64,000 bases of DNA from an uncultured Bdellovibrionales bacterium. GTDB lineage: Bacteria; Patescibacteriota; Minisyncoccia; Moranbacterales; UBA1568. Each line of letters begins with the position of its first letter. The stretch's first letter is position 1. The stretch covers positions 2,358 through 66,357 of the forward strand of contig CAZRXW010000001.1 in NCBI GenBank assembly GCA_964604195.1, given 5' to 3'. The notes under the pieces were generated by a model. The model worked only from the letters and a program-made list of their open reading frames with translations, searched no databases and had not been told where the DNA came from. The position numbers were made by a program, and so were the translations under genes. Below are positions 1 through 54,745 of this stretch, piece after piece.

Positions 1-1553
1 CTCATATTCCCAAAGGAGGTATTGTGGTCCGGGATGCCAAGAAAAATGAAGCGCTCACGCTTTTGGATGATACAGTGCTTTCTCTCTCCAAGGACGACAT
101 TGTCATCGCTGATAGTCGCCGCGCCTTGGCTCTTGCAGGAGTCATGGGGGGCAAACACTCGGGTATAAGCAGCGATTCAAAGTCTGTGGTGTTTGAGCTC
201 GCTCATTTTGATGCCAAGAGTATTCGGCGTACCGAAAAGCGCTATCGGATGCAGACGGATGCGGCCTATCGTTTTGAGCGCGGCATTGATCTTGGCCGAC
301 CGGGTGAGGTGATGGCTCTTTTAGCGGAGAAGGCTGCTCTCTGGGGTCTTGGTCATGATTTCTTTTACCGAGAGGTGGGGGTTAAGCTTCCTAAGCCAAA
401 ATCTATTACGCTCGAACTCGAAGCGGTGGCGAGTCTTTTGGGGGCTAAAGTACCACTTTTTGAAATCGTACAGTATTGTTCCTGGCTTGGTCTTTCGGTC
501 AAAAAACTTCCCAATCGCCAAGCGCTTCAGGTTACTCCACCACTGCGTCGACCAGATCTGAGCACCCCAGAAGATATTATTGAAGAAATTGGGCGAACAC
601 GCGGGTATAGCGCTATAGAGCCGCTCCCTCTTGCTCTTCCAGCGGTACCATTGGTCCGAGACGGGGATAAAGCATTTGAACGTACACTGAAACATACCCT
701 CGCTCATCTTGGTTTTGATGAAGTCATGACCTATTCCTTTTATAGCGAGAAGTCAGCTCTCGCGTCGGGATATGCTCCGACCGAACATTTGAAATTGGCC
801 AACCCCATGAATCCTGATCAGGCTCTCATGAGGAGAAGTCTTTTCCCGGGGCTTCTTCGAGCGGCACTCAACAATACTGCCCACTCAACCCGCTTCTCGC
901 TCTTTGAATTTGGCAGTGTTTATTTTCCCACTAAGGAAAAGCCCGATGAAGAGAAAAAAGTAGCACTCCTCTGTTTCGATCGTGAAAGCACTTCTGTTGA
1001 GGCAAGTTTTCTTGATTTCAAAGGACGGGTAGAAGCACTTTTTGGTCAGCTCAAGGTCCCGGTAAAGTTTTTGCCAGTATTGGTAGCGGTGCCGCGCTAT
1101 CTCGAGTCAGGGGGAGCCGCCAATCTTACTGTGCAGGGTGAAATTTTTGGAACGATTGGTATTGTAAAAGATGTTGCTATCCAGAAGTTTGGCAAGCGTG
1201 CTGTATTATTCTTTGTCGAATTTTCGGTCAAGACGGCCGCTGCTTTCCAAGAACAAGAGCGAGTCTTCCAAAGGATTGCTCGTTTTCCTATGGCAGAGAG
1301 GGATATTTCTCTCATTGGTCCAAAAGAGGTAACGTACGATAGGCTGCTTCAGGTTATTGAGTCAGCTGGCGCACCACTCCTGAGGAAGGTAGAACTGTTT
1401 GATGTCTATCCCACTGAAGAAGAAAAGAGCTTTTCTCTTCATCTTGGTTTTCAGTCTGATGAACGGACGCTCTCCGGCGAGGAGATGGATCGCTCTTTTG
1501 ACGCGATAGTAGCAGCAGCTGGGGAACATCTCAATATGAGATTAAAGCTTTAA
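1..1553 (+). CDS. pheT: phenylalanine--tRNA ligase beta subunit, C-terminal ~515 aa (5' end lies upstream of window)
   Basis: Reading frame is open from nt 3 to the stop at 1551-1553; the track ORF starts at an internal GTG (24). Translation shows PheT B3/B4 and C-terminal FDX-ACB-like regions (e.g. ...VFELAHFDAKSIRRT..., ...GVMGG...). Confidence 0.8.
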   Translation, partial: HIPKGGIVVRDAKKNEALTLLDDTVLSLSKDDIVIADSRRALALAGVMGGKHSGISSDSKSVVFELAHFDAKSIRRTEKRYRMQTDAAYRFERGIDLGRPGEVMALLAEKAALWGLGHDFFYREVGVKLPKPKSITLELEAVASLLGAKVPLFEIVQYCSWLGLSVKKLPNRQALQVTPPLRRPDLSTPEDIIEEIGRTRGYSAIEPLPLALPAVPLVRDGDKAFERTLKHTLAHLGFDEVMTYSFYSEKSALASGYAPTEHLKLANPMNPDQALMRRSLFPGLLRAALNNTAHSTRFSLFEFGSVYFPTKEKPDEEKKVALLCFDRESTSVEASFLDFKGRVEALFGQLKVPVKFLPVLVAVPRYLESGGAANLTVQGEIFGTIGIVKDVAIQKFGKRAVLFFVEFSVKTAAAFQEQERVFQRIARFPMAERDISLIGPKEVTYDRLLQVIESAGAPLLRKVELFDVYPTEEEKSFSLHLGFQSDERTLSGEEMDRSFDAIVAAAGEHLNMRLKL

Positions 1554-1640
1554 ATAAGCCATTTATTTTGCTTTCTTGGCGTTAGTTTTCTGTTGACTAA
1601 AATTGTTTTTTGTGATATGATGGTCCAGTTGGAAGATCTT

Positions 1641-2340
1641 TTACAAAACAGGTTGGACTACTGCGCTACGGTGTGGAAAGTCCGGACATCGACCCTCTCA
1701 TTTTTGGAGAGGGAAGGGTAGTGGGTAACGCCCACACGTCGTGAGACGCGAGGTGCGAGCAGAGACGCTCATGGAATGAGAATTTCAGAGCCCTTGTCTT
1801 TGACAAGGTGAGTCCTCGTAGTGATATGAGGGGTGAAACGGCTAAATCCTTACTTCGATGCAAGGTCGTGTCCCGCACCTTTTCAGGTTGATAAAGATAA
1901 TTTTGGTATATACCAGATGACCGTCTTTTTAGAGAGATGGTTGTTGGTTTACGAGTCTGAAAAGGTGCGGGAAGAACCGCAAAGATTTCTCTAGTAATAG
2001 AGAAGCAAGAGAAATAGTAGTCACCCCGCACCTTTTAGTCTTGAGAGAGTTTTATGTACTATATGTACTGAGGAGCAGGCAAAAAGATATTTTCTATATT
2101 GGCTGTACTGAAGATCTTAAGAAAAGAATTCTTCAGCACAACAATGGAGAGTCTCGAGCCACAAAGTCCGCTGCTCTTTGGGAGTTGATATATTACGAGG
2201 CTTATACTTCTTTAAGTTTAGCGAGACGTCGTGAGTTGAGGTTAAAACATCATGGAAAAGGTTTAGCTGAACTCAAAAAGAGAGTTATTGAAGACTAAAA
2301 GGTGCGGGGTACAGAATCCGGCTTATAGACCTGTTTTGTA
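1641..2340 (+). ncRNA. rnpB: RNase P RNA (bacterial type), ~700 nt with large ORF-containing insertion
   Basis: P4 5' strand GGAAAGTCCGGAC at 1675-1687. Universal GGGTAACGCC at 1723-1732. AGGGGTGAAACGG and CAAGG elements follow. P4 3' strand ACAGAATCCGGCTTA at 2311-2325. Terminal P1 pairing ACAAAACAGGT (1643-1653) with ACCTGTTTTGT (2329-2339). No protein-coding signal on + strand in 1560-2040. Confidence 0.75.
2041..2298 (+). CDS. GIY-YIG nuclease family protein (COG2827/YhbQ-like, 85 aa) encoded inside the RNase P RNA gene
   Basis: ATG 2041, TAA 2296-2298. N-terminal FYVLYVLRS...IFYIGCTEDLKKRILQHN matches the GIY-YIG motif pattern, followed by conserved R/E-rich helix (LARRRELRLK). Lies entirely in the loop of a 13-bp hairpin, CCCCGCACCTTTT 2024-2036 paired with AAAAGGTGCGGGG 2297-2309. 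Confidence 0.7.
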   Translation: MREFYVLYVLRSRQKDIFYIGCTEDLKKRILQHNNGESRATKSAALWELIYYEAYTSLSLARRRELRLKHHGKGLAELKKRVIED

Positions 2341-2372
2341 AAAGTGCTTTCAATTATTAGTTATTCAAGCTT

Positions 2373-3788
2373 GTGAAACGATCAGAAATCTATTTTGGTG
2401 CCCTGCAGCTCCCGGTGGATTTCGTGATGATACTGTTGGCGGCCGCCTCCGCTTATTTTTTGCGTGGCACAGAATTTTTTCAGCCGTACGTTTCGCGAGT
2501 GTTCAACCTGGCCTTTGATGATTATTTTCGGTTTGCACTCACGGTAGCACCACTCTTCATCGTTATTTTGGCGATCGAAGGATTGTACCGTATGCGGGTC
2601 ACTCGTCGTTTGTGGCAAGAACTCTATGGGGTGACCAAGGCTATTACGATTGGTCTCATCATTCTCATGATTGCGGTATTCCTCCAGCGAGAATGGTTTT
2701 CGTCACGCTTTGTTATCCTGGTCTCTTGGTTTTTGGCAGTGGTCTATGTTGTTTTTGCTCGTTTTCTCTTGCAGCGCGTACAGCGTTGGTTTCTTATTCA
2801 TCGGGGAGTAGGAGTACACAGACTTCTCCTTATTGGGACCAATCAACGCATGTATGCTCTCAAGAAGCTGCTCACCCGAGATAAGACACTTGGCTACCGA
2901 GTAGTTGATCATATTGATACGGCGAGCGTGACGAGAGTCAAAGAGATTCGTGCCAAAAAGGGGATTGATGAGATTGTTATTGGCGATCCGACTCTGACTG
3001 ATGATGAACAGGAGAAATTGTTTGACTATTGTCAGATCAACAATATTACCTACAAGTATTTCCCGACAACTCTCCAGACGCCACGTTTTGAAATGAAAAT
3101 TTTCAATGGCGAGCCAGTGATCGAATTTCAGCATACACCGCTTGATGGGTGGGGCAAGGTTTTGAAGCGAGCCTTTGATATCGTGGCGGGAGTTATCCTG
3201 ACGATTCTCTTTTCCCCAGTGATGCTCATTATTGCTCTCCTCATCAAACTTGAGGATGCTGGTGGTCCAGTTATTTATACCAACGAACGTATTGGTGAGA
3301 ATGGTGAGAAAATTCCTGTCTTCAAGTTTCGCTATATGCAGTGGAAGTGGTGTATTAATAAGGCGAATCCCAATTTTCAAGAGGCGCTGGCCTATGAAAA
3401 AGAGCTCATCGCCGAGCGCAGTCTCCGTGAAGGGCCACTCTACAAAATCAAGGATGATCCACGTAAGACGAGGGTGGGAGCGATTATTGAGCGCTATTCT
3501 ATCGATGAACTTCCACAGCTTTTCAATGTTCTCCGAGGAGAGATGAGTCTTGTGGGCCCACGGCCGCATCAGAAGCGAGAAGTGGAAAAGTATAGTGAAT
3601 ATCACCGTCGTCTCCTTACTATCAAACCCGGAGTCACTGGGATGGCCCAGGTATCCGGCCGCTCAGATCTCGATTTCGAAGACGAGTATCGACTGGATGT
3701 GTTTTATATCGAGAACTGGTCTCTTTGGCTCGACATCCTCATCTGCTTCAAAACAGCTGCCGCTCTTATCCGCCGCCGCAGGAATTAG
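2373..3788 (+). CDS. undecaprenyl-phosphate sugar phosphotransferase (WbaP/WcaJ-type bacterial sugar transferase, polyisoprenyl-phosphate hexose-1-P transferase)
   Basis: GTG start. N-terminal 5 TM helices. C-terminal bacterial sugar transferase domain (RAFDIVAGV..LSPVM..IIALLIKLEDAGGPVIY..ERIG.NG..F.KFR.M, ..DELPQLFNVLRGEMSLVGPRP). Confidence 0.85.
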   Translation: MKRSEIYFGALQLPVDFVMILLAAASAYFLRGTEFFQPYVSRVFNLAFDDYFRFALTVAPLFIVILAIEGLYRMRVTRRLWQELYGVTKAITIGLIILMIAVFLQREWFSSRFVILVSWFLAVVYVVFARFLLQRVQRWFLIHRGVGVHRLLLIGTNQRMYALKKLLTRDKTLGYRVVDHIDTASVTRVKEIRAKKGIDEIVIGDPTLTDDEQEKLFDYCQINNITYKYFPTTLQTPRFEMKIFNGEPVIEFQHTPLDGWGKVLKRAFDIVAGVILTILFSPVMLIIALLIKLEDAGGPVIYTNERIGENGEKIPVFKFRYMQWKWCINKANPNFQEALAYEKELIAERSLREGPLYKIKDDPRKTRVGAIIERYSIDELPQLFNVLRGEMSLVGPRPHQKREVEKYSEYHRRLLTIKPGVTGMAQVSGRSDLDFEDEYRLDVFYIENWSLWLDILICFKTAAALIRRRRN

Positions 3789-3813
3789 AGAGCGCCTATA
3801 CGTAAGTCCGAAA

Positions 3814-3837
3814 AGTCCCGAGAAAGGGACTTTTTTA
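3814..3837 (+). terminator. rho-independent terminator (AGTCCC-GAGAAA-GGGACT + T6)
   Basis: Perfect 6-bp GC-containing stem with 6-nt loop followed by TTTTTT, immediately after the sugar-transferase stop. Confidence 0.6.
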
Positions 3838-3938
3838 CTCCCATTTTTTGTATTTTTAAAATAACGCTATACTTTTCTAAGAGCGTCAATATTTACATTT
3901 TTACCCCACTTGCTACAGTGGAGTGTCACACAATCCTT

Positions 3939-4595
3939 ATGGACAAACGCCTTTTCATTATCCTCTTTGCTCTCGTCATCCTTCTTGTAGGTGGCTATTT
4001 CGCCTGGCAGAAGCAGCAATCAGTGACTACTCCGACACCGGTCGTCACTGAACCAGTGGTGAAGGAACCAGTGCCAGCCCCAACCGAAGAACCTATCGAT
4101 ACCTCTGACTGGAAGACCTATCGGAACGAGGAGTATGGGTTTGAGTTTAAGTATCCGAAGGAGTGGGCTATTAAGAAAACTACGACACCTGCCGTGTTTT
4201 ATCTAAGATCAGAAAAATTTCAACCAGTGTTTCTAGGGAATTTAGCGTCAGGGGAACCATTTTACTCAGATGGAGAGATAAAAGTAGAAATATTTACTAA
4301 TGTACATAACCTATCCATTCAGGAGAGATATTCACAGTTTGATGATATTTATCGTGCATATGCGAATGATCCAAAACTTTTGTCCACTTTAACGAACGTC
4401 AATCATAATGACTTGTTAACCTTTGAAACACATAGAGGCTTTGGCAGAAATTTAGATTCGGATGAATACCAAACAGTGAGAATTCTTAAAATCAAAGACA
4501 AAATCCTTCACTTCGACTACATCTCTCAGAATCAGCCCGATTCACGGGTCGAGCAGATTCTCGCAGGTGTAGTACATTCAGTGAGCGAGCTATAG
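3939..4595 (+). CDS. hypothetical secreted/membrane-anchored protein (N-terminal TM, Pro/Thr-rich linker)
   Basis: ATG 3939 (the track's 3918 is an upstream GTG). Sequence MDKRLFIILFALVILLVGGYF then TPTPVVTEPVVKEPVPAPTEEP linker; no recognisable catalytic motifs. Confidence 0.5.
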   Translation: MDKRLFIILFALVILLVGGYFAWQKQQSVTTPTPVVTEPVVKEPVPAPTEEPIDTSDWKTYRNEEYGFEFKYPKEWAIKKTTTPAVFYLRSEKFQPVFLGNLASGEPFYSDGEIKVEIFTNVHNLSIQERYSQFDDIYRAYANDPKLLSTLTNVNHNDLLTFETHRGFGRNLDSDEYQTVRILKIKDKILHFDYISQNQPDSRVEQILAGVVHSVSEL

Positions 4596-4646
4596 CCATA
4601 GCAAGCAAGCTGGTTCGTTAACAACTTTCTATGGAAGGAAAGCAAG

Positions 4647-6650
4647 ATGAGTACGCTCATCAAGTTGGTGCTGGTTGGGTGGCTTGTCTCGCTCTCCCAG
4701 TTCGCAGTGGCTGCTATGCCAAGTCTCAAGTTGCCATTCGATACGAGTGAACCCTGGCGGGTAAACAGAGGCTACGAGCAAGGCTGGTCTCACAAGGGGA
4801 AAGATCGCTACGCACTTGATTTTGCGTCTGGTGACTGCGATCGAACTTACGGCAAACCGATTCTGGCTGCCGCATCAGGAACAGTGAGGTCAATCGATAG
4901 AGTCGAGAAGCAAACCCCAACGGATTATCCTAGCTACGGGAACCAAATCATCATCGATCATGGTGACGGGTGGACGACACGCTATGCCCATCTGAGCGAA
5001 ATCGACTCCTCAGTCGCTGAGCATGGTGAGAGGCGTTTCGTCGTGCAGGGTCAGAAGATCGGTGAAGCGGGTGGGACGGGATCAGTTGAAGGATCGATGT
5101 GTACGCGTACCGATATCCCTGTTGGCGTCCTTGGAGTCCATCTTCACTTCGCCCTCTACTATAACGGTGATGGCGTGAAACCAGAGCCAATGAGTGGGTA
5201 CAGTGGATTTGCTGCTGAGACGTGGTATGCCTCCAACAACACCCAGCAATCCCCAGCCATGACCCAACCTGCTATCTCTTGTGTTTACGTGGCTGGAGAC
5301 AACCAGTTCTGCTGGAAGAGCGCCAATGCCACACCGGCCTCATGCGGGAAGGCAGTAGCGTGGATCCTCAACGACAACACTGCTCAGGTGTTGTACAACA
5401 AATCAGCGAGTGACTGCCCGACATACTGTACGGTCTCCAATAGTTACTGCAGAGATGTTTCCGGTAGCTTGAGTGTCGGTGGTTTCGGCTCCCTCTCCTC
5501 CTTCAACCTCAAGATCAACCGCTTCTGGGTGAGAGATGTAGCGACACAACTCGATTTGGTTTCAGGTGGTCACACCGTCCGTACTGGTCAAGCTCTTGAG
5601 GTGCGGCTTCAGCAAAAGGCGGTCAATGGCAATACCAACGACTACATGCGCCCCGGCAAGGATCGGGTCGAGACTGACCTTTACAACAGAGAAGACAGTG
5701 GTGACTGGCGTTTCCTTGGTCGGGAATACACCCAGGCTATCAACTTGCCGAAGGACGCTACCCACACCGAGCATGTGGTCTATACCGTCCCTCCTGGTGC
5801 TACGGAAGTGTGCTTCAAGGGGAAGATCGATGCCGAAGACGAAGCCTCCGAAAACAATGAAGGGGACAACTGGTCGCCGGTGGCCTGTTTCCGGGTCGAC
5901 AACAATCCGACGGTCAATTTCATTACCACCTTTATCGGCCTGACCAATACCCCGACCCCAGTGCCACCTGGGAGTGCTATGCGGGCCAGGATGGCCATCC
6001 GGAATGTTGGAACGACGGCACCTAGTGCTGCCATCAGGAGTAGCTACAGCTATCGACCACTCGGTTCGACAGGTCCCTGGATCCAAATCGCTGATGATGG
6101 CTCGGATCCATCAGATCTCGTGCCCAATCGAGATCACTGGGAGGAGACTCTTTCAGCGGTTACTGCTCCGCAAGTGCCGGGTTGGTACGAACTGCGTGGT
6201 TGCGCCGACTACCAGAACGCTGTCCTTGAATCGAACGAAACCGACAACTGTCTCACGACAACTTTTGAAGTCGCTGCCTACCCCGACCTCATCATCACCT
6301 ACATCGAGATTGATCCTTGGCCAGATCGGTCGATCCAGAAGGACAAGGAGCACCATCCTACCATGAAGATCAAGAACGTCGGTCCTGGACCGGTTACCTC
6401 GGGCATCCGGAGTGCCTACTACTGGTACGGACCCTCTACCGGAAATGTCTGGAGACTCATCGCTGACGATGGGACAGAAGCTCAGGAACTCTGCGCTGGT
6501 TGTGAGGTAACGGAAACCATGAGGAGTGGTTTCAAGGCTACCAAGACAGGAACTCACTACCTCAAGGCTTGCGTTGACTACCAAGGCAACCAACCTGAAG
6601 GAGATGAAGGAAACAACTGTCTTCAGAGTGCTCCCATCACGGTGAAGTGA
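4647..6650 (+). CDS. secreted M23 (LytM-type) metallopeptidase with C-terminal CARDB-like repeats; GC-rich gene
   Basis: Signal peptide (LVLVGWLVSLSQFAVAA). M23 motifs (YALDFA..G.PILAAASGTV, IIIDHGDGWTTRYAHLSEI, GQKIG.AGGTG, LHFALY). Three C-terminal repeats carrying NETDNCL / EGDNWSP / EGDEGNNCL motifs typical of CARDB/adhesin-like beta-sandwich domains. GC and GC3 are clearly higher than flanking genes. Confidence 0.8.
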   Translation: MSTLIKLVLVGWLVSLSQFAVAAMPSLKLPFDTSEPWRVNRGYEQGWSHKGKDRYALDFASGDCDRTYGKPILAAASGTVRSIDRVEKQTPTDYPSYGNQIIIDHGDGWTTRYAHLSEIDSSVAEHGERRFVVQGQKIGEAGGTGSVEGSMCTRTDIPVGVLGVHLHFALYYNGDGVKPEPMSGYSGFAAETWYASNNTQQSPAMTQPAISCVYVAGDNQFCWKSANATPASCGKAVAWILNDNTAQVLYNKSASDCPTYCTVSNSYCRDVSGSLSVGGFGSLSSFNLKINRFWVRDVATQLDLVSGGHTVRTGQALEVRLQQKAVNGNTNDYMRPGKDRVETDLYNREDSGDWRFLGREYTQAINLPKDATHTEHVVYTVPPGATEVCFKGKIDAEDEASENNEGDNWSPVACFRVDNNPTVNFITTFIGLTNTPTPVPPGSAMRARMAIRNVGTTAPSAAIRSSYSYRPLGSTGPWIQIADDGSDPSDLVPNRDHWEETLSAVTAPQVPGWYELRGCADYQNAVLESNETDNCLTTTFEVAAYPDLIITYIEIDPWPDRSIQKDKEHHPTMKIKNVGPGPVTSGIRSAYYWYGPSTGNVWRLIADDGTEAQELCAGCEVTETMRSGFKATKTGTHYLKACVDYQGNQPEGDEGNNCLQSAPITVK

Positions 6651-6690
6651 AGCATCGAGGATATATGGGGGGGATTCTCGATCGATCTAG

Positions 6691-6732
6691 GACCCGGAGG
6701 TACCGTGAGTACTTGCCGGGTCTGTTTATATT
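6691..6732 (+). terminator. terminator-like hairpin (GACCCGG ... CCGGGTC) followed by T-rich tract
   Basis: 7-bp GC stem with 18-nt loop (loop contains the recurring CCGTGAGTACTTG motif), then TGTTTATATTT; located 40 nt after the M23 stop. Confidence 0.4.
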
Positions 6733-6784
6733 TAGAAAGTCTACAAACTTATTAAGAAATCTGATAGACTTTAGAAAGTCTGTT

Positions 6785-7222
6785 ATGACTGATACAAAGC
6801 TGAAGAGAAATTTAAATATACAATTTGTTGTAAGGGTGATTTTTTGGTCACTCCTGTTTCTATCCCTGATTTTGACGGTTAAGCGGGTATATATAGATCG
6901 AGATTTTGTCCTCTCTCAAGAAATAGAATGTGATCCTTGGACTGAGAGTTGTTTTACTCGGCTTTGCGAGGAAGACTGTGACACAGAGAAGGAATATTAC
7001 AAATTACAGACTGTCTCTGCGCGGTACATGTCAACGTGTGATCCCCATATTGAAGAATGTCCAGAAATTGACTGTAATGAAACTCCAACCTGTGAGATTG
7101 TTTTCTGTGATGAGATCACCGTGACGGATGGTGAATGGTGTACAACTCCAGAAACATATCATGGGGATCAATCTGAAGAGGGGACGGATGATCTAGAAGA
7201 GGATAATGCAATAAACCAGTAA
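6785..7222 (+). CDS. hypothetical small Cys-rich acidic protein with N-terminal TM anchor
   Basis: In-frame ATG 6785 (the track ORF begins upstream at 6647, inside the terminator region). One TM (VVRVIFWSLLFLSLILTV), then 14 Cys in CxxxC / CxxC-like spacing and an Asp/Glu/Thr-rich C-terminus. Confidence 0.45.
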   Translation: MTDTKLKRNLNIQFVVRVIFWSLLFLSLILTVKRVYIDRDFVLSQEIECDPWTESCFTRLCEEDCDTEKEYYKLQTVSARYMSTCDPHIEECPEIDCNETPTCEIVFCDEITVTDGEWCTTPETYHGDQSEEGTDDLEEDNAINQ

Positions 7223-7229
7223 GATTGCT

Positions 7230-8522
7230 ATGCGCGTCCTCTTTATCTCCCGAGAACTTGGAGCTTCCGAGCTTGCTGTGGCCCTTCAACAGGAGGGCTG
7301 TGAAGTTAAAATGTTTGTCGATGACCCTGTAGTGAGTCACGGTCTTGATGGAATTGTGTCAAAAATTACCGACTGGGAATCTGAGTTGACATGGGTTGGG
7401 AAGCAAGGGCTTATCATCTTCGATGATACGGGATATGGTAAGCGTCAGATGGAATTACGAGCTTTGGGATATCGAGTGGTTGGTGGGAGCCAGGAAGCAG
7501 ATAGAATAGAGATTGATCGACTAGTAGGGAAACAAATATTTGAAGCGTCTGGTCTCCAGTCACTGACGACTTGTAGTTTTGATAACCTTGAGGAGGCTAT
7601 CCATTTTTTGTGTTCCCAGAACAATAAACGTTGGGTAGCAAAAGTAAACGGGGGCCACATTAGTTCATTGTGCTATGTCGGAGAAAATTATGACCAGAGT
7701 GATATTATTGGAGTATTGAGTCATTATCATCAGCAGGGAGTAACTCACGTAAATCTCCAAGAGCGAGTAGAAGGCGTGGAAATAGGAGTAGGACGCTACT
7801 TTAATGGATCAGATTGGGTTGGTCCAGTTGAGATTAACGTTGAGCATAAGTCACTTATGCCAAATAATGTTGGTCCCAAGACAGCGGAGATGGGTACACT
7901 CATGTGGTATGAAAGTGATGAAGAATGTCGCCTTTTTCAATCTACTTTGGCTCCGATGAAAGAATATCTGAGGAGTATAGATTTTCGTGGAGATGTAGAT
8001 ATTAATTGCATTATTCATGAAAATAATCTTTGGCCGCTGGAATTTACGGCTCGTTTTGGCAATCCTGCTACGGCATTGCAAATTGAAATACATGACTCTC
8101 CTTGGAGAGAGTTTCTTGGTGCGGTAGCGGATGGAGCTCCCTATGATCTTAAATTTAAGAAAGGTTACGGGGTCGTTGTAACGGTAGCAGTGCCACCCTT
8201 TCCTTACTATGTAGATGTCTCATCAGCTGAGACCTCTTTTGGTTTACCGGTAGTTTTTCGACAGTTATTGAATGAAAACGAATGGAAGCACTATGGCTTT
8301 GAAGAGATTGGTCGCGATAGTTCAGGAAACTTTTTTGTCGCAGGTAATCGTGGCTGTGTGGCGCATGTGACTGGTTTTGGTGAGACTATTGAGAAGGCTC
8401 GGGAAGAAGCCTATCAACGAGTAGGTAACATAGTGGTACCGAAGATGTTCTATCGGTCGGATATAGGGTTAAATTTTTTTGAACGAGAGCAGTCTCTCTT
8501 AAAGCAATGGGGATGGCTCTAA
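7230..8522 (+). CDS. divergent PurD-like ATP-grasp ligase (phosphoribosylamine--glycine ligase family)
   Basis: Collinear with PurD. N-domain MRVLFIS..GASE.A.A. ATP-grasp core with NVGPKTAEMG (cf. GPNTGGMG). C-domain WPLEFTARFGNPAT (cf. EFN.RFGDPET) and FYRSDIG (cf. FCRKDIG). Lacks the canonical GNGGREHA N-terminus, so substrate is uncertain. Confidence 0.6.
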   Translation: MRVLFISRELGASELAVALQQEGCEVKMFVDDPVVSHGLDGIVSKITDWESELTWVGKQGLIIFDDTGYGKRQMELRALGYRVVGGSQEADRIEIDRLVGKQIFEASGLQSLTTCSFDNLEEAIHFLCSQNNKRWVAKVNGGHISSLCYVGENYDQSDIIGVLSHYHQQGVTHVNLQERVEGVEIGVGRYFNGSDWVGPVEINVEHKSLMPNNVGPKTAEMGTLMWYESDEECRLFQSTLAPMKEYLRSIDFRGDVDINCIIHENNLWPLEFTARFGNPATALQIEIHDSPWREFLGAVADGAPYDLKFKKGYGVVVTVAVPPFPYYVDVSSAETSFGLPVVFRQLLNENEWKHYGFEEIGRDSSGNFFVAGNRGCVAHVTGFGETIEKAREEAYQRVGNIVVPKMFYRSDIGLNFFEREQSLLKQWGWL

Positions 8523-8547
8523 TTTAAAACCCCAGATCTTTTTCTAT

Positions 8548-9486
8548 ATGGATACGTGGCTCATTATTTCTTTAATTGCTCCAGCGTTATGGGCAATTAC
8601 CAATCTTATCGATGTCTATTTTGTTGCATCGTCTTATGATGATGAATATGATGGTGCTGTTATCTCCGGATTCTTCCAACTCTTCCCCTGGTTGTTAGTG
8701 TTGATTGGGTGGCAACAGTTTCATGGGTTTGGTGATGGGAGTGCTTATCTTTTTATCGGTGGCGTTTGTTATCTCCTCTTCCTTTTCTGGTATTTTAAAG
8801 CGTTGTTTTCAAAAAATGACGTTGCTCTTATTCAATTACTTCTTAATTTGGCAGTACCAGTAACGCTCATCCTTTCTTTTGCCTTCTATAGAGAGTTTAT
8901 TTCGGGACTACAATTTGTAGGTGGACTGCTAATTTTTGGCGGTGTTAGCGTGTTAGGTTTCCAGTCATCGTTTCAATGGTCTCAAATAAAGCACCTGGCT
9001 TTTCCTATGGGGTTGGCCGTTATTTTTCTTTCCCTAAGTATGATTTTTTCGAGCAAGGGATATGATTATGGGCATGGTTTTTTTAGTTCGTACCTTATTT
9101 ATTCTCTTGGCATGATGGCTACGGCAGCCGTCTTACTCCTCTTTAAACAGAAGAAAGACAGTGCATTTATAGGGCATCTTGTTACTTTGACAAGGAATTA
9201 TTTTGGTATTTTTCTTGTAGCTGAATTTATCGGGCTTCTGGGTTATATATTCTCTCAGCGTTCACTTGATCTGGCACCCTCGGCATCTTTAGTGGTACTA
9301 GTTGAATGCCTTCTTCCAATATTTATTCTTGTTTTTAGTTTTTTCATACTGGTATTTTTCAAAATTACCAATTCACATCAATCCCTTGTGGACGAAATTT
9401 ATCGAGATCAGCTTATTGGATATCCAGTTAAAATTATAGCTACGGTACTGGTCAGTCTAGGTGTTTATGTTTTATCATTGGGTTAA
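8548..9486 (+). CDS. hypothetical polytopic membrane protein (~9-10 TM)
   Basis: Continuous hydrophobic helices throughout, no soluble domain; follows ATP-grasp gene by 25 nt. Confidence 0.55.
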   Translation: MDTWLIISLIAPALWAITNLIDVYFVASSYDDEYDGAVISGFFQLFPWLLVLIGWQQFHGFGDGSAYLFIGGVCYLLFLFWYFKALFSKNDVALIQLLLNLAVPVTLILSFAFYREFISGLQFVGGLLIFGGVSVLGFQSSFQWSQIKHLAFPMGLAVIFLSLSMIFSSKGYDYGHGFFSSYLIYSLGMMATAAVLLLFKQKKDSAFIGHLVTLTRNYFGIFLVAEFIGLLGYIFSQRSLDLAPSASLVVLVECLLPIFILVFSFFILVFFKITNSHQSLVDEIYRDQLIGYPVKIIATVLVSLGVYVLSLG

Positions 9487-9494
9487 TTTAATCT

Positions 9495-11165
9495 ATGTTT
9501 TGTATTGACATACCATCTCCTGTAGCGCTTATTTTCTCGGAGTCTACACCGACGCTGCTTTATTATTCGCATCTCCCAGTGATATTTGTGTCTATTTTAA
9601 TTGGTCTGCTTGTTTTTTCTAAAAATAAAAGTCTTGAAAGCCGATTGCTCTTGGCAGTCGTGGTTTCTTTTGCGACATGGAATCTGATTGATCTCGTTAA
9701 TTGGACAAATGTTGATGCTCGCATCATCATGATTTCCTGGTCTTTCATGAACTTCTTCTTTTGTTTGGTTGTAGCGCTCACTCTTTATTTCTCTTATGTC
9801 TTTTTAAGAAAAGAAGAGCCGAGGCTATGGGCACTGCTAGTTGGAGCTCTGCCTCTTATTACTTATATCCTATTTATTCCTACATCATTCAATCTTATAG
9901 GGTTCGATCTAGCCATTTGTGAGGCAATGGAGGGTTCTTTAGTTACCTACTTTCATTTGCTCCAGGCATTTTACTTTGTTTGGCTGGTTCTCTTTTTGAT
10001 TCATGAATGCTATCAAGATTGGAAACTAAAAAAGAAACAAGCTCTTTACTTGGGATTAGGTATAGGCTTCTTCATTCTGAGCTTCTATACAGGTAATCTT
10101 GTGGCTGATATTCTCGATAATTGGGAATTGGAACAGTATGGTCTTTTCGGAATGCTTATTTTCATGATGTTTCTGGTCTATCTAATTGTCCGCTACCAGG
10201 CTTTCAACATGAAGCTCCTAGGGGCTCAGGCTTTAACAGCGGCCTTTGTTATTCTTATAGGAACTCAGTTCTTCTTTGCTACAACTACCATTACAATTGT
10301 TCTTACCACCATTACATTTGTCCTTTCTCTTATTTTTGCTTATTTCCTTATCAGGGAAGTGAAAAAAGAGGTTCAGCGGAAGGAGGAGTTGGAGGTGCTG
10401 ACCAATGAGTTGTCAGTCGCCAATACCGAGCTCAAACGGCTTGATAGTGCCAAGAGTGAATTCATCTCAATTGCATCTCACCAACTCCGTACGCCACTTA
10501 CTGCTATCAGGGGATTTCTTGATCTTTTGCTCGAGGGAGCGTATGGAAAAATTGAACCAAAGGTAAAGGATACTTTGGGCAAGTTGACCATTGCTAATAA
10601 TCGTCTCATGGGTTTGGTGGAAAATCTTTTGAATATCTCTCGTATTGAGGCGGGGAGGATCCAGTATCAGTTTAATCCAGCTCATATCGAAGATATAGTA
10701 AATGAACTGGAAGATATGTTTGTACTGGCCGCAAAAGAAAAGGGTATAGCTTTCTCAGTCAAAAGGCCCAAGCAGTCACTGCCTCTTCTCTCGCTTGATG
10801 CCACCAAGATTCGTGAGGTAATTTCCAACCTTATCGATAACGCTCTGAAGTACACTTCTCAGGGGTCGATAACGGTTTCGTATGAGCACCACCCTCACTC
10901 TGTCCGGGTCATTATAACCGACACAGGTATGGGCATCGAACCTAAAGATTTGCCGCATATATTCAAGAAGTTTGAGCGTGGAACAGGAGCGGAAAAAGTC
11001 AATGTATCAAGTACGGGGTTAGGGCTCTATGTAGGGAGTAAGTTTGCTGAGGCGCATGGAGGAACTATTCGTGCTGAATCAGCGGGCAAGGGTCAGGGCT
11101 CCCGGTTTATTCTGGAGCTCCCGGTGCACATTGTAGAACGGGCCAAGGAGTTGCCCCAAGCCTAA
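9495..11165 (+). CDS. sensor histidine kinase with N-terminal multi-TM sensor domain
   Basis: About 8 TM helices. Coiled coil. HisKA H-box SIASHQLRTPLTAIRGF. HATPase_c N/G1/G2 boxes (NLIDNALKYT, DTGMGI, GLGLYV). Confidence 0.8.
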   Translation: MFCIDIPSPVALIFSESTPTLLYYSHLPVIFVSILIGLLVFSKNKSLESRLLLAVVVSFATWNLIDLVNWTNVDARIIMISWSFMNFFFCLVVALTLYFSYVFLRKEEPRLWALLVGALPLITYILFIPTSFNLIGFDLAICEAMEGSLVTYFHLLQAFYFVWLVLFLIHECYQDWKLKKKQALYLGLGIGFFILSFYTGNLVADILDNWELEQYGLFGMLIFMMFLVYLIVRYQAFNMKLLGAQALTAAFVILIGTQFFFATTTITIVLTTITFVLSLIFAYFLIREVKKEVQRKEELEVLTNELSVANTELKRLDSAKSEFISIASHQLRTPLTAIRGFLDLLLEGAYGKIEPKVKDTLGKLTIANNRLMGLVENLLNISRIEAGRIQYQFNPAHIEDIVNELEDMFVLAAKEKGIAFSVKRPKQSLPLLSLDATKIREVISNLIDNALKYTSQGSITVSYEHHPHSVRVIITDTGMGIEPKDLPHIFKKFERGTGAEKVNVSSTGLGLYVGSKFAEAHGGTIRAESAGKGQGSRFILELPVHIVERAKELPQA

Positions 11166-11201
11166 TAGTCTGCTAATCTAGGGCGGTTAGAAGCAAAATA
11201 T

Positions 11202-11570
11202 ATGTCAAAAATATTGTTGGTTGAAGACGATCCATTTATAGCTGAGATTTACGAGAAAAAGCTCGCTGACGCTGGTTTTGAGGTGGTCAATGCCAAGACG
11301 GGCAAGGAGGTCCTCAAACGAGTTGCCGAATCGGCATATGATCTGGTGCTGCTTGATATGGTCCTTCCAGAGCTTTCAGGCATGGAGGTTCTCCAGGAGC
11401 TCCGCAGTAAGCCGGAATATGATCAGAATCTCAAAATAGTGGTGTTTAGCAATCTTTCGAGTCCAGAAGAGCAAGCGGCTGCCATCAAAGCTGGGGCAAC
11501 GGGTTTTATTTCCAAAACCTCATTTGCTCCCTCTCAAGTAGTGGATGAAATAAAGCGATATTTGATGTAA
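11202..11570 (+). CDS. single-domain response regulator (CheY-like receiver)
   Basis: ILLVEDD...DLVLLDMVLP...K at expected positions of the REC fold; no output domain. Confidence 0.8.
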   Translation: MSKILLVEDDPFIAEIYEKKLADAGFEVVNAKTGKEVLKRVAESAYDLVLLDMVLPELSGMEVLQELRSKPEYDQNLKIVVFSNLSSPEEQAAAIKAGATGFISKTSFAPSQVVDEIKRYLM

Positions 11571-11581
11571 TTGAATGGCGT

Positions 11582-12907
11582 ATGTCCTCGAGAGTTTTGG
11601 TTCTTGATGCGGTGCACAAAATTGGTGAGACGATCGAACTTCGTGGTTGGGTGAGTGTTCGTCGTGACCACGGTAAGTTAATTTTCCTCGAACTTCGTGA
11701 TCGTAGTGGGTCAGTGCAGCTGGTGGTTACTCCAGAAAAGGAAAATGTTTTGACGGTGGCAAAAGAAGTTCGTCCAGAATATACGGTCTCGGTAACTGGA
11801 TTAGTCAAAGAACGTCCCGGAAAAGCAGCTGAGAGTTCACCTACTGGCGGAATAGAAATTGAGGTTACATCACTCTCGATTCTCTCCCAGCCAGCAGAAG
11901 AACTTCCTATTGATGTTTCCAAGACTGATCTCGAACTCAATCTCGACACACTTCTTACTCATCGCACCCTGGCTCTTCGTAATGAAAAAGTGCGAGCCAT
12001 TTTCAAGATTTACTCCGAAATGCTTTTTGCTTATGGTGAAGCACTTCGGCAGGAGGGATTCCTCGAAATCAAGACCCCCAAGATTCTTTCGGCAGCTACG
12101 GAGGGCGGGGCAAACTTCTTCAAAATTAAATACTTCGATCGAGATGCTTTTTTGGCACAGAGCCCTCAGTTCTACAAGCAGGCTGCTATGAGTGCCTTTG
12201 AGCGAGTCTTTGAGGTGGGTGTTGTGTTTCGAGCGGAGCCAAGTTTTACTACTCGCCATGTGACAGAGTATACCGGTCTTGATGCTGAGATGGGTTTTAT
12301 TGAGAATGTCGAAGAGGTGATGGCTATGCTAGAAAAAACCATGATGCATGTCTTCGCTCATATTGGTAAAACCTGCCAGAAAGAACTCGCCCTGTACGGA
12401 GCCACCGTTCCAGAGGCGGTGCCTATCCCACGCTTGCGACTAGCGGAAGCTTTCGAGATTCTCAAGAATGAATTTGGAAAAGTAATCCCTGAAGGCGAGG
12501 ATATTGATAGTGAAGGAGAGCGTCTCATTGGTGAGTACGTTAAAAAGAAATACAATTCCGATTTTGTTTTCCTCACTCATTATCCAACGGCGGTACGGGC
12601 TTTTTATTCATTGCCGAGTCCTGAAAATCCCAAGCTGTGTGAAAGCTATGACCTCGTGTTTCGTGGTCTGGAAATTGCCTCAGGAGCTGAGCGTGTACAT
12701 GAGTATCAGATGTTGGTGGATATTCTCAAAGGTCGCGGGCTTGATCCGGCTCAGTTTAGTGACTATCTGGATATCTTCAAAAACGGAGCGCCTCGGCATG
12801 GTGGATGGGGATTGGGTTCTGAACGTATAGTGCAGAAGCTTCTCGGGCTGGAGACTATCAAAGAAGCGATTCTCTACCCTCGAGATGTGAAGCGTCTCAC
12901 CCCCTAG
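11582..12907 (+). CDS. aspS: aspartate--tRNA ligase, archaeal/eukaryotic type (class IIb; AsnRS not fully excluded)
   Basis: N-terminal OB anticodon-binding domain (IELRGWV...GK.IFLELRD). Class II motif 2 FRAEPSFTTRHVTEYTGLDAEMGF. Motif 3 GGWGLGSERIVQ. Length 441 aa fits archaeal-type AspRS. Confidence 0.7.
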   Translation: MSSRVLVLDAVHKIGETIELRGWVSVRRDHGKLIFLELRDRSGSVQLVVTPEKENVLTVAKEVRPEYTVSVTGLVKERPGKAAESSPTGGIEIEVTSLSILSQPAEELPIDVSKTDLELNLDTLLTHRTLALRNEKVRAIFKIYSEMLFAYGEALRQEGFLEIKTPKILSAATEGGANFFKIKYFDRDAFLAQSPQFYKQAAMSAFERVFEVGVVFRAEPSFTTRHVTEYTGLDAEMGFIENVEEVMAMLEKTMMHVFAHIGKTCQKELALYGATVPEAVPIPRLRLAEAFEILKNEFGKVIPEGEDIDSEGERLIGEYVKKKYNSDFVFLTHYPTAVRAFYSLPSPENPKLCESYDLVFRGLEIASGAERVHEYQMLVDILKGRGLDPAQFSDYLDIFKNGAPRHGGWGLGSERIVQKLLGLETIKEAILYPRDVKRLTP

Positions 12908-12923
12908 TTTTTCCAGTTTCCCT

Positions 12924-12960
12924 AACCCGTCCTTTAGCCCTGGGCGGGTTTCTTTTTGTT
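12924..12960 (+). terminator. rho-independent terminator (AACCCGTCC ... GGGCGGGTT + T-tract)
   Basis: 9-bp stem (one G-U) and 9-nt loop followed by TCTTTTTGTTTT, 17 nt after aspS stop. Confidence 0.55.
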
Positions 12961-12985
12961 TTATATAGGGTACAATGTGAGTGCT

Positions 12986-13543
12986 ATGCAAACAACTCAG
13001 ACAAACATCGAGGGACTCCTTATTCTTCAACCAGCTCTCTATGCTGATGAGCGGGGTTGGTTTATGGAGAGTTTTCAGGAGGAACGGTATCAGGGGCTTC
13101 TGGGTACAGATATTCATTTTGTTCAAGATAATCTTTCGTTTTCCAAGCGAGGGGTTCTGAGAGGACTACATTATCAAGCGCCGCCATTTGCTCAGGGGAA
13201 GCTCGTCTCGGTCTTGCATGGCCGAGTCATGGATGTGGCGGTTGATATTCGGTTTGGATCGCCGACCTTTGGGCAACATGTCGCAGTCGAGCTTTCAGCC
13301 GAGAATCATAAACAATTTTGGATTCCAGCAGGTTTTGCCCACGGTTTTATTGCACTCGAAGATGATACGGTGTTTGCCTATAAATGCACCAATGTTTATT
13401 CACGCGAACATGACCGAGGAGTGCGGTGGAATGACTCAGCTCTTGGTATACGCTGGGGAATAGATAATCCTATTGTGTCAGAAAAAGACAGAGTTCACCC
13501 ATTGTTGAAGGACATTCAAAAGGATTTCGTATTTGAAAGTTAA
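12986..13543 (+). CDS. rfbC: dTDP-4-dehydrorhamnose 3,5-epimerase
   Basis: ATG 12986. Cupin-type RmlC motifs (DERGWFMESF, RGLHYQ, QGKLV.V..G.V.DVAVD.R..SPTFG). Confidence 0.85.
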   Translation: MQTTQTNIEGLLILQPALYADERGWFMESFQEERYQGLLGTDIHFVQDNLSFSKRGVLRGLHYQAPPFAQGKLVSVLHGRVMDVAVDIRFGSPTFGQHVAVELSAENHKQFWIPAGFAHGFIALEDDTVFAYKCTNVYSREHDRGVRWNDSALGIRWGIDNPIVSEKDRVHPLLKDIQKDFVFES

Positions 13544-13565
13544 TCAGCGAGGTAACTGGAAAGCT

Positions 13566-14567
13566 ATGAGACTACTCGTGACGGGAGGTGCTGGATTTAT
13601 CGGAGGTAATTTCGTTCACCACGTATTACAAGCCTCTCCAGAATACACCGTAGTGGTGTTGGATGCGCTGACCTATGCGGGGAATTTAGAAAACTTAGCG
13701 AGCGTACAGGATGCTGCTCATTTTCGGTTTGTGAAAGGTGATATTACCGATGCAACGCTGGTGGATACTTTGGTCAAGGAGTGTGACGCGGTCGTACATT
13801 TTGCTGCTGAATCACACGTAGACCGCTCCATTTTGGGGCCGGAAGCATTTGTACGGACCAATGTGCTCGGAACCTTTACTTTGTTAGAAGCCGCCCGCAA
13901 GTATAGCAAGCGTTTCCATCATGTCTCCACCGATGAGGTGTTTGGCACTCTGGCCCAGACCGATCCAGCGTTTGACGAATCAACAGCCTATGATCCACGA
14001 AGCCCCTATAGCGCCAGTAAGGCAGGGAGTGATCACCTCGTGCGTGCCTACTTCCATACCTATGGGCTGCCGATCACGATTTCCAATTGCTCCAATAATT
14101 ATGGACCCTACCATTTCCCAGAGAAACTGATTCCGCTCGCTATTACCAATCTTCTTGAAGGAAAAAAGGTGCCGGTGTATGGTGACGGGCTTCAGGTACG
14201 GGACTGGCTCTATGTCGAGGACCATGCCAGGGCTATCGCGCTCATTCTCGAAAAGGGAAGGGTTGGTGAAACGTACTGTATCGGTGGCAATGCAGAGAAA
14301 GAAAATATCTGGATTGTGAAGAAACTGTTGGAAGTCCTTGGCTTTGGGGAAGAATACATCGAGTATGTGCAGGATCGACCAGGGCATGATCGCCGCTACG
14401 CGATCAATTTTGGCAAGATCAAAAATGAGCTCAGCTGGGAGCCAAGCGTAAGTCTTGAAGAAGGCCTCGTCAAAACGGTCGAGTGGTTCAAGGAAAATAG
14501 AGAGTGGTGGCAGCGAGTCAAAAGCGGTGAGTACCAGAAGTATTATGAAAAACAGTATGGAAAATAG
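13566..14567 (+). CDS. rfbB: dTDP-glucose 4,6-dehydratase
   Basis: MRLLVTGGAGFIGGNFV Rossmann motif. YSASKAGSDHLVRAY catalytic YxxxK. Extended SDR fold; track ORF extends 33 nt upstream (13533), overlapping rfbC end. Confidence 0.9.
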   Translation: MRLLVTGGAGFIGGNFVHHVLQASPEYTVVVLDALTYAGNLENLASVQDAAHFRFVKGDITDATLVDTLVKECDAVVHFAAESHVDRSILGPEAFVRTNVLGTFTLLEAARKYSKRFHHVSTDEVFGTLAQTDPAFDESTAYDPRSPYSASKAGSDHLVRAYFHTYGLPITISNCSNNYGPYHFPEKLIPLAITNLLEGKKVPVYGDGLQVRDWLYVEDHARAIALILEKGRVGETYCIGGNAEKENIWIVKKLLEVLGFGEEYIEYVQDRPGHDRRYAINFGKIKNELSWEPSVSLEEGLVKTVEWFKENREWWQRVKSGEYQKYYEKQYGK

Positions 14568-45500: not shown

Positions 45501-45587
45501 TTTTCTCTTTGGGGCGGATTTTTGGTTACCTTGAGTCTCAGGCGAAATTCCGGTACTATGACAGATGCCCTCTTGAGAGGGGGTTTT

Positions 45588-46673: not shown

Positions 46674-46712
46674 AGGGGATAATTTTGGTAATCGAGTGAT
46701 ACAGAAATTTTT

Positions 46713-47522: not shown

Positions 47523-47539
47523 TAGCCTGATAATTATTT

Positions 47540-48034: not shown

Positions 48035-48048
48035 ATTACCACTCTTGT

Positions 48049-54714: not shown

Positions 54715-54745
54715 ATTTTGTGTATAGGCAGAAATACATGGGAGT

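Follow-up and report, generated by a model that had tools for sequence, protein, structure and literature searches.

Probable two-gene cassette of a PsbP-fold membrane protein and a secreted M23 hydrolase, exchanged in modules among strains of Moranbacteria

Lysostaphin and zoocin A are M23 endopeptidases secreted through Sec, in which a separate C-terminal region provides targeting, and each is encoded beside a protection gene. Lif and Zif are FemABX-like immunity enzymes that modify the cross-bridge (PMC9662197). In the type VI secretion system (T6SS) pairs Tse3-Tsi3 and Tse1-Tsi1, a wall-degrading enzyme adjoins a small, envelope-located cognate protein, and the pair co-varies, is duplicated and is exchanged. 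Phage endolysins and Gram-positive autolysins carry M23 or CHAP modules on the same binding or stalk modules and exchange them by recombination, while the housekeeping endopeptidases ShyA, MepM and DipM represent the M23 catalytic fold and motifs in enzymes that are related at the sequence level to the one described here. We compare with these systems a locus in a 64,000-nucleotide stretch of DNA from an uncultured bacterium (GenBank assembly GCA_964604195.1, contig CAZRXW010000001.1, positions 2,358 to 66,357 of the forward strand; hereafter the window). The locus comprises a gene for a secreted M23 hydrolase (4647..6650, + strand, 667 aa; the open reading frame (ORF) has exactly the coordinates given by an earlier, sequence-only reading of this DNA) and, upstream of it, a gene for a membrane-anchored PsbP-fold protein, which we term the partner (3939..4595, + strand). 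We consider it probable that the two genes make up a Moranbacteria cassette whose modules are exchanged among strains; the role of the partner is one that we infer.

The locus shares with lysostaphin and zoocin A the secreted M23 endopeptidase, the separate C-terminal region and the adjacent gene, but its hydrolase has three CARDB beta-sandwiches and not SH3b or TRD, its neighbour is a membrane-anchored PsbP-fold protein and not a FemABX-like enzyme, and its zinc motif is H-x8-D rather than Hx3D. No FemABX-like immunity gene stands beside the hydrolase, the neighbours being a sugar transferase, the PsbP-fold protein and a Cys-rich protein of no known family. The resemblance to the T6SS pairs extends to the fold class of the partner, which includes Tsi3. 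However, in contrast to T6SS and type VII secretion system pairs, the enzyme has a classical signal peptide, and the partner, a putative binder of the enzyme, is encoded upstream and is membrane-anchored; no PAAR, VgrG, LXG or WXG delivery domains or secretion genes were found in the hydrolase or in the annotated neighbours, part of the window having been annotated by Pfam. Unlike the modular lysins, the cassette lacks a phage context, has CARDB binding modules and exchanges part of a neighbouring gene together with the enzyme; a PF04020 'holin-like' gene follows the hydrolase in two relatives (L009 and L010) but is absent from the window. The comparison with ShyA, MepM and DipM extends to some members of the family, which are linked to mreBCD-pbp2, but the hydrolase has no LysM or coiled-coil regulatory domains and varies at the strain level. 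In the literature, we found no description of the hydrolase family or of CARDB-linked hydrolases in Patescibacteria, nor of a CARDB stalk, a PsbP-fold partner co-replaced with a catalytic domain or a codon usage private to such a family. The features of the locus are as follows.

3808..3938, + strand: intergenic/promoter region before the partner gene, forming the left edge of the near-identity with L010
3939..4595, + strand: partner gene, 218 aa, ectodomain type 'Sa' (AlphaFold2 (AF2) model, Foldseek, weak Pfam PsbP_2 match)
4647..4715, + strand: predicted Sec-type signal peptide, hydrolase aa 1-23, read from the sequence (MSTLIKLVLVGWLVSLSQFAVAA; core LVLVGWLVSL, A-V-A-A site)
4725..5246, + strand: M23-a zinc metallopeptidase domain, aa ~27-200 (Pfam PF01551, alignment)
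5247..5501, + strand: Cys-rich linker domain, aa 201-285, with 6 Cys; small beta domain with a predicted local distance difference test score (pLDDT) of 60-73
5502..6284, + strand: CARDB-like repeats R1 (aa 286-419) and R2 (aa 420-546), the conserved family core (AF2 pLDDT ~92)
6285..6650, + strand: CARDB repeat R3 (aa 547-667) and stop codon; variable and replaceable, window allele 'W'
6690..6734, + strand: hydrolase terminator, rho-independent, with UGUUUAUAUUU after a GC-rich stem of 14 bp

The window locus was compared with those of close relatives using the 90%-cluster members P0074 and P0075. Three mutually agreeing assemblies from different samples (L010-L012) share the upstream synteny of PheS, PheT, sugar transferase, partner and hydrolase, and over the background genes (sugar transferase and PheT) the window and L010 differ by 7-9% of nucleotides, with a synonymous divergence (dS) of 0.35. 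At position 3808, 20 nt past the sugar-transferase stop (3788), the divergence falls from ~7% to ~0.1%, and the 2,500 nt of 3808-6307 contain only 3 mismatches (99.9% identity), with a dS of 0.000 over hydrolase codons 1-547. Directly after this 2.5-kb near-identical tract, R3 shows ~43% nucleotide mismatch (dS 1.87, nonsynonymous divergence (dN) 0.40), and none of the L010 downstream genes is found anywhere in the window. The hydrolase has thus moved horizontally very recently between related strains, and the horizontal acquisition suggested by the sequence-only reading is borne out in this form (dS of 0.000 against 0.35), but not as the acquisition of a single gene or from a foreign phylum. 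The exchanged tract includes the GC-poor partner gene.

A second relative, L009, is 97.6% identical to the window in the flank, but 4077-5485 is replaced in it by a CHAP-type partner ectodomain and catalytic domain, the Cys-rich linker being swapped together with the catalytic domain. The following ~760 nt, which encode R1-R2 (5497-6260), match the window with zero mismatches and then give way to a different R3. L009 and L010 share an R3 allele, 'X', unlike allele 'W' of the window, with several amino-acid differences between their two copies. From these block comparisons, one chromosomal locus has at least three alleles in close strains. The hydrolase terminator is kept in both L009 and L010, and all homology stops at 6729. 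The comparisons show that the cassette evolves by homologous recombination at conserved anchors, namely the transmembrane segment and linker of the partner, R1-R2, and the stop codon with the terminator, and that the block of partner ectodomain and catalytic domain is exchanged independently of R3, even among strains that are otherwise 93-98% identical. Ordinary homologous recombination is the mechanism of exchange.

The partner protein is laid out as a transmembrane helix (aa 3-27), a Pro/Val/Thr-rich linker and a PsbP/Mog1-fold ectodomain (aa 58-218, ~4110-4592), and its AF2 model has a pLDDT of 82 and a predicted TM-score (pTM) of 0.68. Foldseek searches against the PDB match it to PsbP (E = 8e-7) and to Tsi3 (E = 1e-4, TMt 0.62), which provides immunity to the T6SS muramidase Tse3. 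Tsi3 belongs to the PsbP fold class together with many unrelated binding proteins. An upstream partner, ~200-220 aa long, could be identified in 14 loci, and its ectodomain type corresponds to the catalytic type of the hydrolase in every one of them (M23-a with Sa, M23-b with Sb and CHAP with Sc). One genome encodes at least 4 hydrolase paralogs, and all three paralog loci in which the upstream region is present carry their own type-matched partner; P0200 and P0005 lie on one contig. The codon usage of the partner genes is host-like, with a GC content at third codon positions (GC3) of 0.42 in the window and, for pooled partners, a GC3 of 0.39 and a correlation of r = 0.91 with the background. 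Before the partner gene, promoter-like hexamers occur at 3834-3862 and 3892-3919, with no enrichment relative to shuffled sequence.

The hydrolase itself agrees with the domain layout proposed from the sequence alone. The signal peptide is predicted from a hydrophobic core and an A-x-A before (A/F)P(S/N)LKLPF that is conserved in homologs (alignment A2), and the AF2 model has a helix at aa 3-16 and low confidence at aa 15-22. Pfam matches Peptidase_M23 (PF01551) at aa 66-179 with 63.9 bits against a cut-off of 28.7. The canonical His of Hx3D corresponds to Arg54 and is R, G, K or H across the M23-a subfamily, and the first zinc motif is likely non-canonical, with H49-x8-D58 (D58 in 'ALDF') and H176 as zinc ligands proposed from the alignment alone. 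H49 and D58 are conserved across M23-a members, with H49 8 residues before D58. Accepted M23 motifs comprise H(x)nD with n = 3-12 (n = 12 in LasA and n = 7 in gp13) and HxH (PMC9662197), and H-x8-D therefore counts as a valid first motif. The proposed catalytic residues are H115 ('RYAHLS', YAHL) and H174 ('GVHLHF', HLH), and H105 is also among the proposed ligands; H115 and H174-L-H176 are conserved across M23-a members. The spacing from H115 to H174 is 59 residues, and the catalytic His lies ~30 residues upstream of HxH in the examples of the review (PMC9662197). A Cys pair, C64/C151, is likewise conserved, and the closest solved relatives of the domain are DipM, zoocin A (E = 1.3e-7), ShyA and LasA. 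The alignment thus shows a putatively complete M23 site, in which every residue needed for catalysis is present.

The three C-terminal repeats are CARDB domains. Pfam matches CARDB (PF07705) with 58.8 bits against a cut-off of 22.7 in two stretches covering R2 and R3, the best of them at aa 546-660, and hhalign relates R1 to R2 at 95.6%, R1 to R3 at 96.8% and R2 to R3 at 99.8%. The AF2 model (overall pLDDT 83) has R1, R2 and R3 as three beta-sandwiches with a pLDDT of ~90, and each repeat ends in E-x-N-E-x-(D/N)-N-(C/W), so that the end motifs listed in the sequence-only reading are present. Foldseek searches with the whole hydrolase against the PDB found only generic tandem beta-sandwich arrays of the immunoglobulin (Ig)-like or MG-domain kind (integrins, alpha-2-macroglobulin, PorU and RbmA; TM < 0.25). 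NCBIfam and PHROGs have no specific family for the protein, with NCBIfam equivalogs far under their cut-offs (for example, ShyA with 31 against 700 bits) and PHROG matches that are weak and confined to the M23 domain. The family is built on a common chassis of signal peptide, catalytic domain, Cys-containing linker and R1, to which the long forms add R2 and R3. It has three non-equivalent catalytic types, M23-a as in the window, M23-b with a canonical 'HLGED' motif, and CHAP, and R3 classes combine with different catalytic types.

Of 1.84 billion cluster representatives searched with R1, the most conserved module of the family, only 62 match at E <= 1e-3, and 14 of them reach E <= 1e-30. Every close homolog of the hydrolase is either an unnamed metagenome protein or labelled Candidatus Moranbacteria/Moraniibacteriota, and one is encoded in a complete 1.09-Mb genome. 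Judged by these matches, the family is small and restricted to the Moranbacteria lineage. A scan of a single metagenome gave distant CARDB-level matches only and no further hydrolase alleles.

We propose that the partner is held in the cytoplasmic membrane by its one N-terminal helix, with the PsbP-fold ectodomain outside on a flexible linker. The hydrolase would be a Sec-secreted, zinc-dependent M23 endopeptidase, with the disulfide-rich linker and the three CARDB (Ig-like beta-sandwich) domains behind the catalytic domain, and would cut the peptide cross-links or stems of peptidoglycan. The CARDB domains may serve as a stalk and targeting arm, with R3 proposed as the specificity module because it is the part replaced between strains. 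The partner ectodomain may bind the catalytic domain, as suggested by their strict co-variation, co-duplication and co-replacement, and it would most likely restrain the enzyme on the producer's own wall in the manner of an immunity protein or inhibitor; alternatively, it may tether or activate the enzyme. As to the target, we lean tentatively, at just under an even chance, towards an outward role in which the hydrolase acts on the wall of a host or competitor and the partner provides self-protection. We favour this role because the catalytic domain, or warhead, and the tip are replaced at the strain level, paralogs have partners of their own, the locus adjoins a break in synteny and it was introgressed very recently. 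That the hydrolase instead remodels the wall of its own cell under regulation is nearly as likely.

Several points weigh against the cassette and its outward role. The top fold matches of the partner are to PsbP itself and not to Tsi3, and PsbP_2-like membrane proteins are very common in Patescibacteria (184 matches, mostly to the N-terminal motif only). In a more distant relative, L006, the small proteins encoded before an M23-type enzyme belong to other types. Co-replacement would be expected without physical interaction for adjacent segments bounded by conserved recombination anchors, and the evidence from which the interaction of partner and enzyme is drawn consists of linkage and co-variation. 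The CHAP allele of L009 comes from a single 5.2-kb contig. The codon bias described below is left unexplained by the cassette, and no single candidate cause fits everything. Finally, a CHAP-type member and its partner stand immediately upstream of mreB-mreC-(ORF)-PBP2, where PBP2 is a penicillin-binding protein (PBP), in two genomes (L002 10042-14359 and L003 3504-7863), and the window encodes wall machinery of its own (MurJ, PBP1, MreB, MreC and PBP2).

The last two points favour a housekeeping alternative that survives best among the rival explanations and has a substantial chance of being correct, if less than an even one. It holds that the hydrolase is a 'space-maker' autolysin that cleaves the cell's own cross-links during growth and is tethered or activated by its membrane partner, with a logic like that of FtsEX- or adaptor-controlled endopeptidases. 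In E. coli, M23 and NlpC/P60-CHAP endopeptidases (MepM and MepS) act redundantly as space-makers, which also counts for the housekeeping role, as do the location of the hydrolase gene among envelope genes and the presence of ShyA and DipM among its sequence relatives. However, both the catalytic type and the terminal module are replaced at the strain level, at least four paralogs occur in one genome, three of them with an identifiable partner of their own, and the gene was introgressed very recently and stands where synteny breaks; such features are commoner in genes under diversifying or conflict-driven selection. The mreB cluster of the window (45522-49950) has no hydrolase or partner neighbour, unlike those of L002 and L003.

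The means by which the tiny bacteria of the candidate phyla radiation, Moranbacteria among them, physically engage and exploit other cells are largely unknown, and few molecular candidates are available. The cassette provides one that is concrete and can be tested: a secreted wall hydrolase confined to this almost uncharacterised lineage, with a membrane partner that co-varies with it, recent exchange and combinatorial modules. If the partner proves to be an inhibitor, the two would form an effector/immunity-like system relying on the Sec pathway alone, and the variable CARDB module would offer a handle on host or target specificity. It may be speculated, though we regard this as unlikely on present evidence, that a Sec-secreted 'polymorphic hydrolase' system without a specialised secretion machine operates in Moranbacteria and perhaps in other episymbionts of the candidate phyla radiation. 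In such a system, the warhead (M23-a, M23-b or CHAP) would be exchanged together with the ectodomain of its immunity protein, the terminal CARDB domain would set the target surface, the modules would be traded in an arms race and the private codon usage would be a by-product.

The hydrolase gene stands out from its surroundings in composition, as the sequence-only reading had pointed out. Its GC content is 0.543 and its GC3 is 0.597, as compared to ~0.45 and ~0.40 in its neighbours, a GC3 of 0.33-0.50 in most other ORFs of the window and a GC content of 0.4585 in the window as a whole. In a likelihood change-point scan, the GC-rich segment extends over 4670-6724 (GC 0.545 inside against 0.427 outside; log-likelihood ratio 40.8), with a left support interval of 4505-4695 that contains the start codon and a right edge at 6699-6729, ~75 nt 3' of the stop codon, which coincides with the end of the terminator hairpin. 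The compositional boundary is therefore gene-precise, as claimed, when the hairpin is counted as part of the gene, but the exchanged tract is bounded differently and includes the partner gene. The terminator region (6651-6735) has a minimum free energy of -29.6 kcal/mol (z = -2.1); a consensus scan for promoters and terminators gave matches no commoner than in shuffles and missed this terminator. Re-coding the hydrolase protein with the codon frequencies of the window predicts a GC of 0.475 and a GC3 of 0.391 +/- 0.018, and the observed GC3 departs from the latter by z = 11.3. Thus, the excess is synonymous and is not explained by amino-acid composition. The gene is not the only atypical stretch in the window: ORF 55241-56428 (z = 10.1), ORF 61918-62763 (z = 8.8) and everything beyond 61800 deviate similarly. 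The codons below illustrate the bias.

TTC: hydrolase 0.76, window background 0.22
TAC: hydrolase 0.79, window background 0.25
AAC: hydrolase 0.69, window background 0.19
ATC: hydrolase 0.90, window background 0.29
AAG: hydrolase 0.84, window background 0.44

The bias lies mainly in C-ending pyrimidine codons and AAG, without any rise in GAG or CAG and with GCT and GGT still preferred, and because it is codon-specific in this way it does not amount to a uniform shift towards high GC. It is uniform across all five domains of the hydrolase. In relative synonymous codon usage (RSCU), the window hydrolase correlates with the window background at r = 0.29, as against 0.86-0.91 for normal long genes, and with the pooled other members of the family at r = 0.92, although synonymous sites between them are saturated, with a proportion of synonymous differences (pS) of 0.71-0.77. 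The preference for C-ending codons is 0.47-0.65 in the family against 0.25-0.48 in the host backgrounds and lies above the background in all 17 non-redundant loci. Across loci, the GC3 of the family (0.57 +/- 0.05) and that of the hosts (0.49 +/- 0.05) are uncorrelated. As the same signature is met in 17 of 17 host backgrounds despite the saturated synonymous sites, it is a standing trait of the family and not the scar of one acquisition. The high GC3 is thus a codon-usage signature of the whole hydrolase family and not the mark of an acquisition from another phylum. This illustrates that a sharp, gene-precise GC3 island is insufficient as evidence of cross-phylum transfer, since the family carries this island as a stable trait and the transferred DNA is otherwise bounded. 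A codon usage decoupled from all host genomes, beside a linked gene that is host-like, constitutes a small puzzle in genome evolution.

Three causes of this signature may be considered, none of which we regard as likely. The first, a doubtful one, is repeated import within the lineage, whereby the compositional home of the family is in GC-richer Moranbacteria (GC3 ~0.6), from which it is transferred into GC-poorer relatives. Very recent transfer between strains is directly seen, and the host background closest to the hydrolase in RSCU is that of the GC-richest contig, L025 (r = 0.72-0.79), in which the family member is host-like (GC3 of 0.61 against 0.60). Moreover, the two other atypical genes of the window have the codon profile of the hydrolase family (r = 0.82-0.86). 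However, the linked partner genes are host-like at every locus, yet a donor composition would be expected there too, the correlation within the family exceeds that with any sampled host, and the recent transfer that was observed joined two GC-poor strains.

The second candidate, which we hold to be unlikely, is codon selection, with very high expression or translational accuracy favouring C-ending codons read by tRNAs with GNN anticodons. The set of raised codons (TTC, TAC, AAC, ATC, ACC and GTC), with GCT and GGT retained and GAA and CAA not disfavoured, resembles sets of optimal codons, and the pattern persists across saturated divergence. On the other hand, the C-preference of S12, S7 and EF-G in L006 is 0.33, 0.17 and 0.41 against a background of 0.36, and that of DnaJ, RRF and MreB in the window is 0.19-0.23; translational selection is downgraded because these expression-marker genes lack the bias. 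In addition, AAG is preferred although the tRNA-Lys of the window has the anticodon UUU.

The third, GC-biased gene conversion, would raise the GC3 of the hydrolase through frequent intragenic recombination and appears improbable. Repeated recombination within the gene is directly evidenced, and the GC content of bacterial genes is positively related to intragenic recombination in general (Lassalle et al. 2015, PMC4450053). However, a uniform shift from AT to GC is predicted by gene conversion, whereas GAG, CAG, GCG and GGG are not raised here, and the partner gene lies in the exchanged tract yet is GC-poor. The increase of 0.15-0.20 in GC3 also exceeds the effects typically reported for bacteria.

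The lineage of the window is Moranbacteria by the SerRS marker (56580-57902), whose named best matches are only to Candidatus Moranbacteria/Moraniibacteriota or Patescibacteria, at 74-77% identity. Many related species-representative third-party annotation (TPA) metagenome-assembled genomes (MAGs; L013-L026, for example GCA_964385515.1) are titled 'uncultured Bdellovibrionales bacterium'. In synteny, SerRS-level similarity and nucleotide sequence (67-75% identity in mreB, PBP2 and AspRS), these MAGs go with the window and the named contigs of Moranbacteria, to which they clearly belong. For this reason we treat the label as a naming artefact, which probably arose from an error of taxonomy mapping in the public records. 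An origin from predatory Bdellovibrionales was rejected, as Moranbacteria are indicated by SerRS, by gene order shared with contigs named as such and by the complete 1.09-Mb genome of a relative.

As for a vehicle, tblastn searches against 50,697 phage genomes matched the M23 domain only, at no more than 39% identity and over no more than 23% of the hydrolase protein, with weak matches in a few tape-measure proteins of Streptomyces phages (E = 5e-5). The hydrolase found no match in plasmids and no relative in the IMG/VR viral contigs, and a transposon or insertion sequence was rejected as vehicle because the locus has no flanking repeats. A diversity-generating retroelement was rejected, as there is no R3-related repeat of 30 nt or more within 1-14000 and the divergence of R3 is not adenine-specific, the alleles differing throughout. 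A phage holin-endolysin cassette was also rejected on account of the housekeeping context, the absence of relatives on viral contigs and the absence from the window of a PF04020 gene after the hydrolase.

Two remaining explanations fare worse still. The mosaic pattern could be an artefact, if metagenome assembly had produced chimeras at an identical repeat common to paralogs or to strains that co-occur, and the 760-2,500 nt of identical sequence shared by the alleles would be able to mislead short-read assemblers, with L009 known from one contig. We regard this as very improbable, as an independent ENA contig (L032) has the arrangement of the window with 99.97% identity over 3.6 kb, that of L010 recurs in three assemblies of different samples, and the CHAP segment is bounded on both sides within the one L009 contig, beside the same sugar-transferase gene. 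Because its flanks are only 97.6% identical to those of the window and its R3 differs from that of L010, L009 is a distinct strain and not a splice of the two. The origin proposed by the sequence-only reading, a single gene from a high-GC donor outside the lineage (Actinobacteria or actinophage) that has not yet ameliorated, drew on the elevated GC3, its persistence after amino-acid correction, the gene-precise edges and the weak phage matches, but it is largely refuted and has next to no probability left, as no close homolog is known outside Moranbacteria and unnamed metagenome proteins, the best matches fall in the same lineage, the phage matches are at the domain level, the signature recurs in 17 of 17 hosts, the bias is codon-specific and the co-inherited partner gene is host-like.

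Some further observations concern the surroundings of the hydrolase. Synteny with the close relatives breaks right after its terminator (6729), and the next gene starts at the ATG at 6786 and encodes 145 aa, with a transmembrane segment, an acidic ectodomain rich in Cys and no family match. The listed ORF 6647-7222 overlaps the stop codon of the hydrolase and is spurious in its 5' part. In L009 and L010, the hydrolase is followed by a PF04020 'Phage_holin_4_2' gene, a 225-aa ORF and a PMT-like glycosyltransferase, none of which is found in the window. L032, which is of the same strain as the window, has a 1-nt deletion in an A-run at ~441 (window ~4856), changing GGCAAACCG to GGCAACCG. This splits the hydrolase into ORFs of 79 aa and 588 aa and represents either an assembly error or a frameshift variant in the population. 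In GCA_008012185.1 (L005), the M23-b member lies beside a 666-aa ORF (3480-5480) with no Pfam match, a GC content of 0.588 and a GC3 of 0.669, and beside a 1,525-aa ORF (5617-10194); these may be further secreted proteins of atypical composition.

Elsewhere in the window, AspRS (50584-52128) and SerRS, which are adjacent in L002 and L003, are separated by an insertion (52146-56428) that contains a tRNA-Val, an ABC transporter (52324-54714), a 114-aa ORF and a GC-rich 395-aa ORF (55241-56428). The last of these has a GC3 of 0.635, sub-threshold Rieske/Ring_hydroxyl_A matches only and a codon profile that correlates with the hydrolase family at r = 0.86 and with the window at r = 0.31. The last 2.2 kb of the window (61800-64000) have a GC content of 0.56-0.65 and could be a foreign island or a mis-join of the MAG. 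They contain a lipoprotein-like ORF of 281 aa (61918-62763), with no Pfam or NCBIfam match and a codon profile that correlates with the hydrolase family at r = 0.82, and no convincing long ORF after 62763. A 430-aa ATP-grasp protein (7230-8522) has only borderline Pfam matches, to GARS A and C (30-36 bits). It may be PurD-like but divergent, or a ligase of another ATP-grasp kind; purine synthesis is expected to be missing from this genome. Gene orientation in the window is extremely biased, with nearly all large ORFs on the + strand and a cumulative GC skew that rises steadily. The sole large minus-strand gene (40948-43056) is a class A PBP by Pfam, for which an identity as EF-G with an expression-type bias was rejected on the basis of this match. 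Its four-fold degenerate sites have 0.06 G and 0.32 C, a mirror image of the third-position bias, which indicates a strong compositional asymmetry between the strands.

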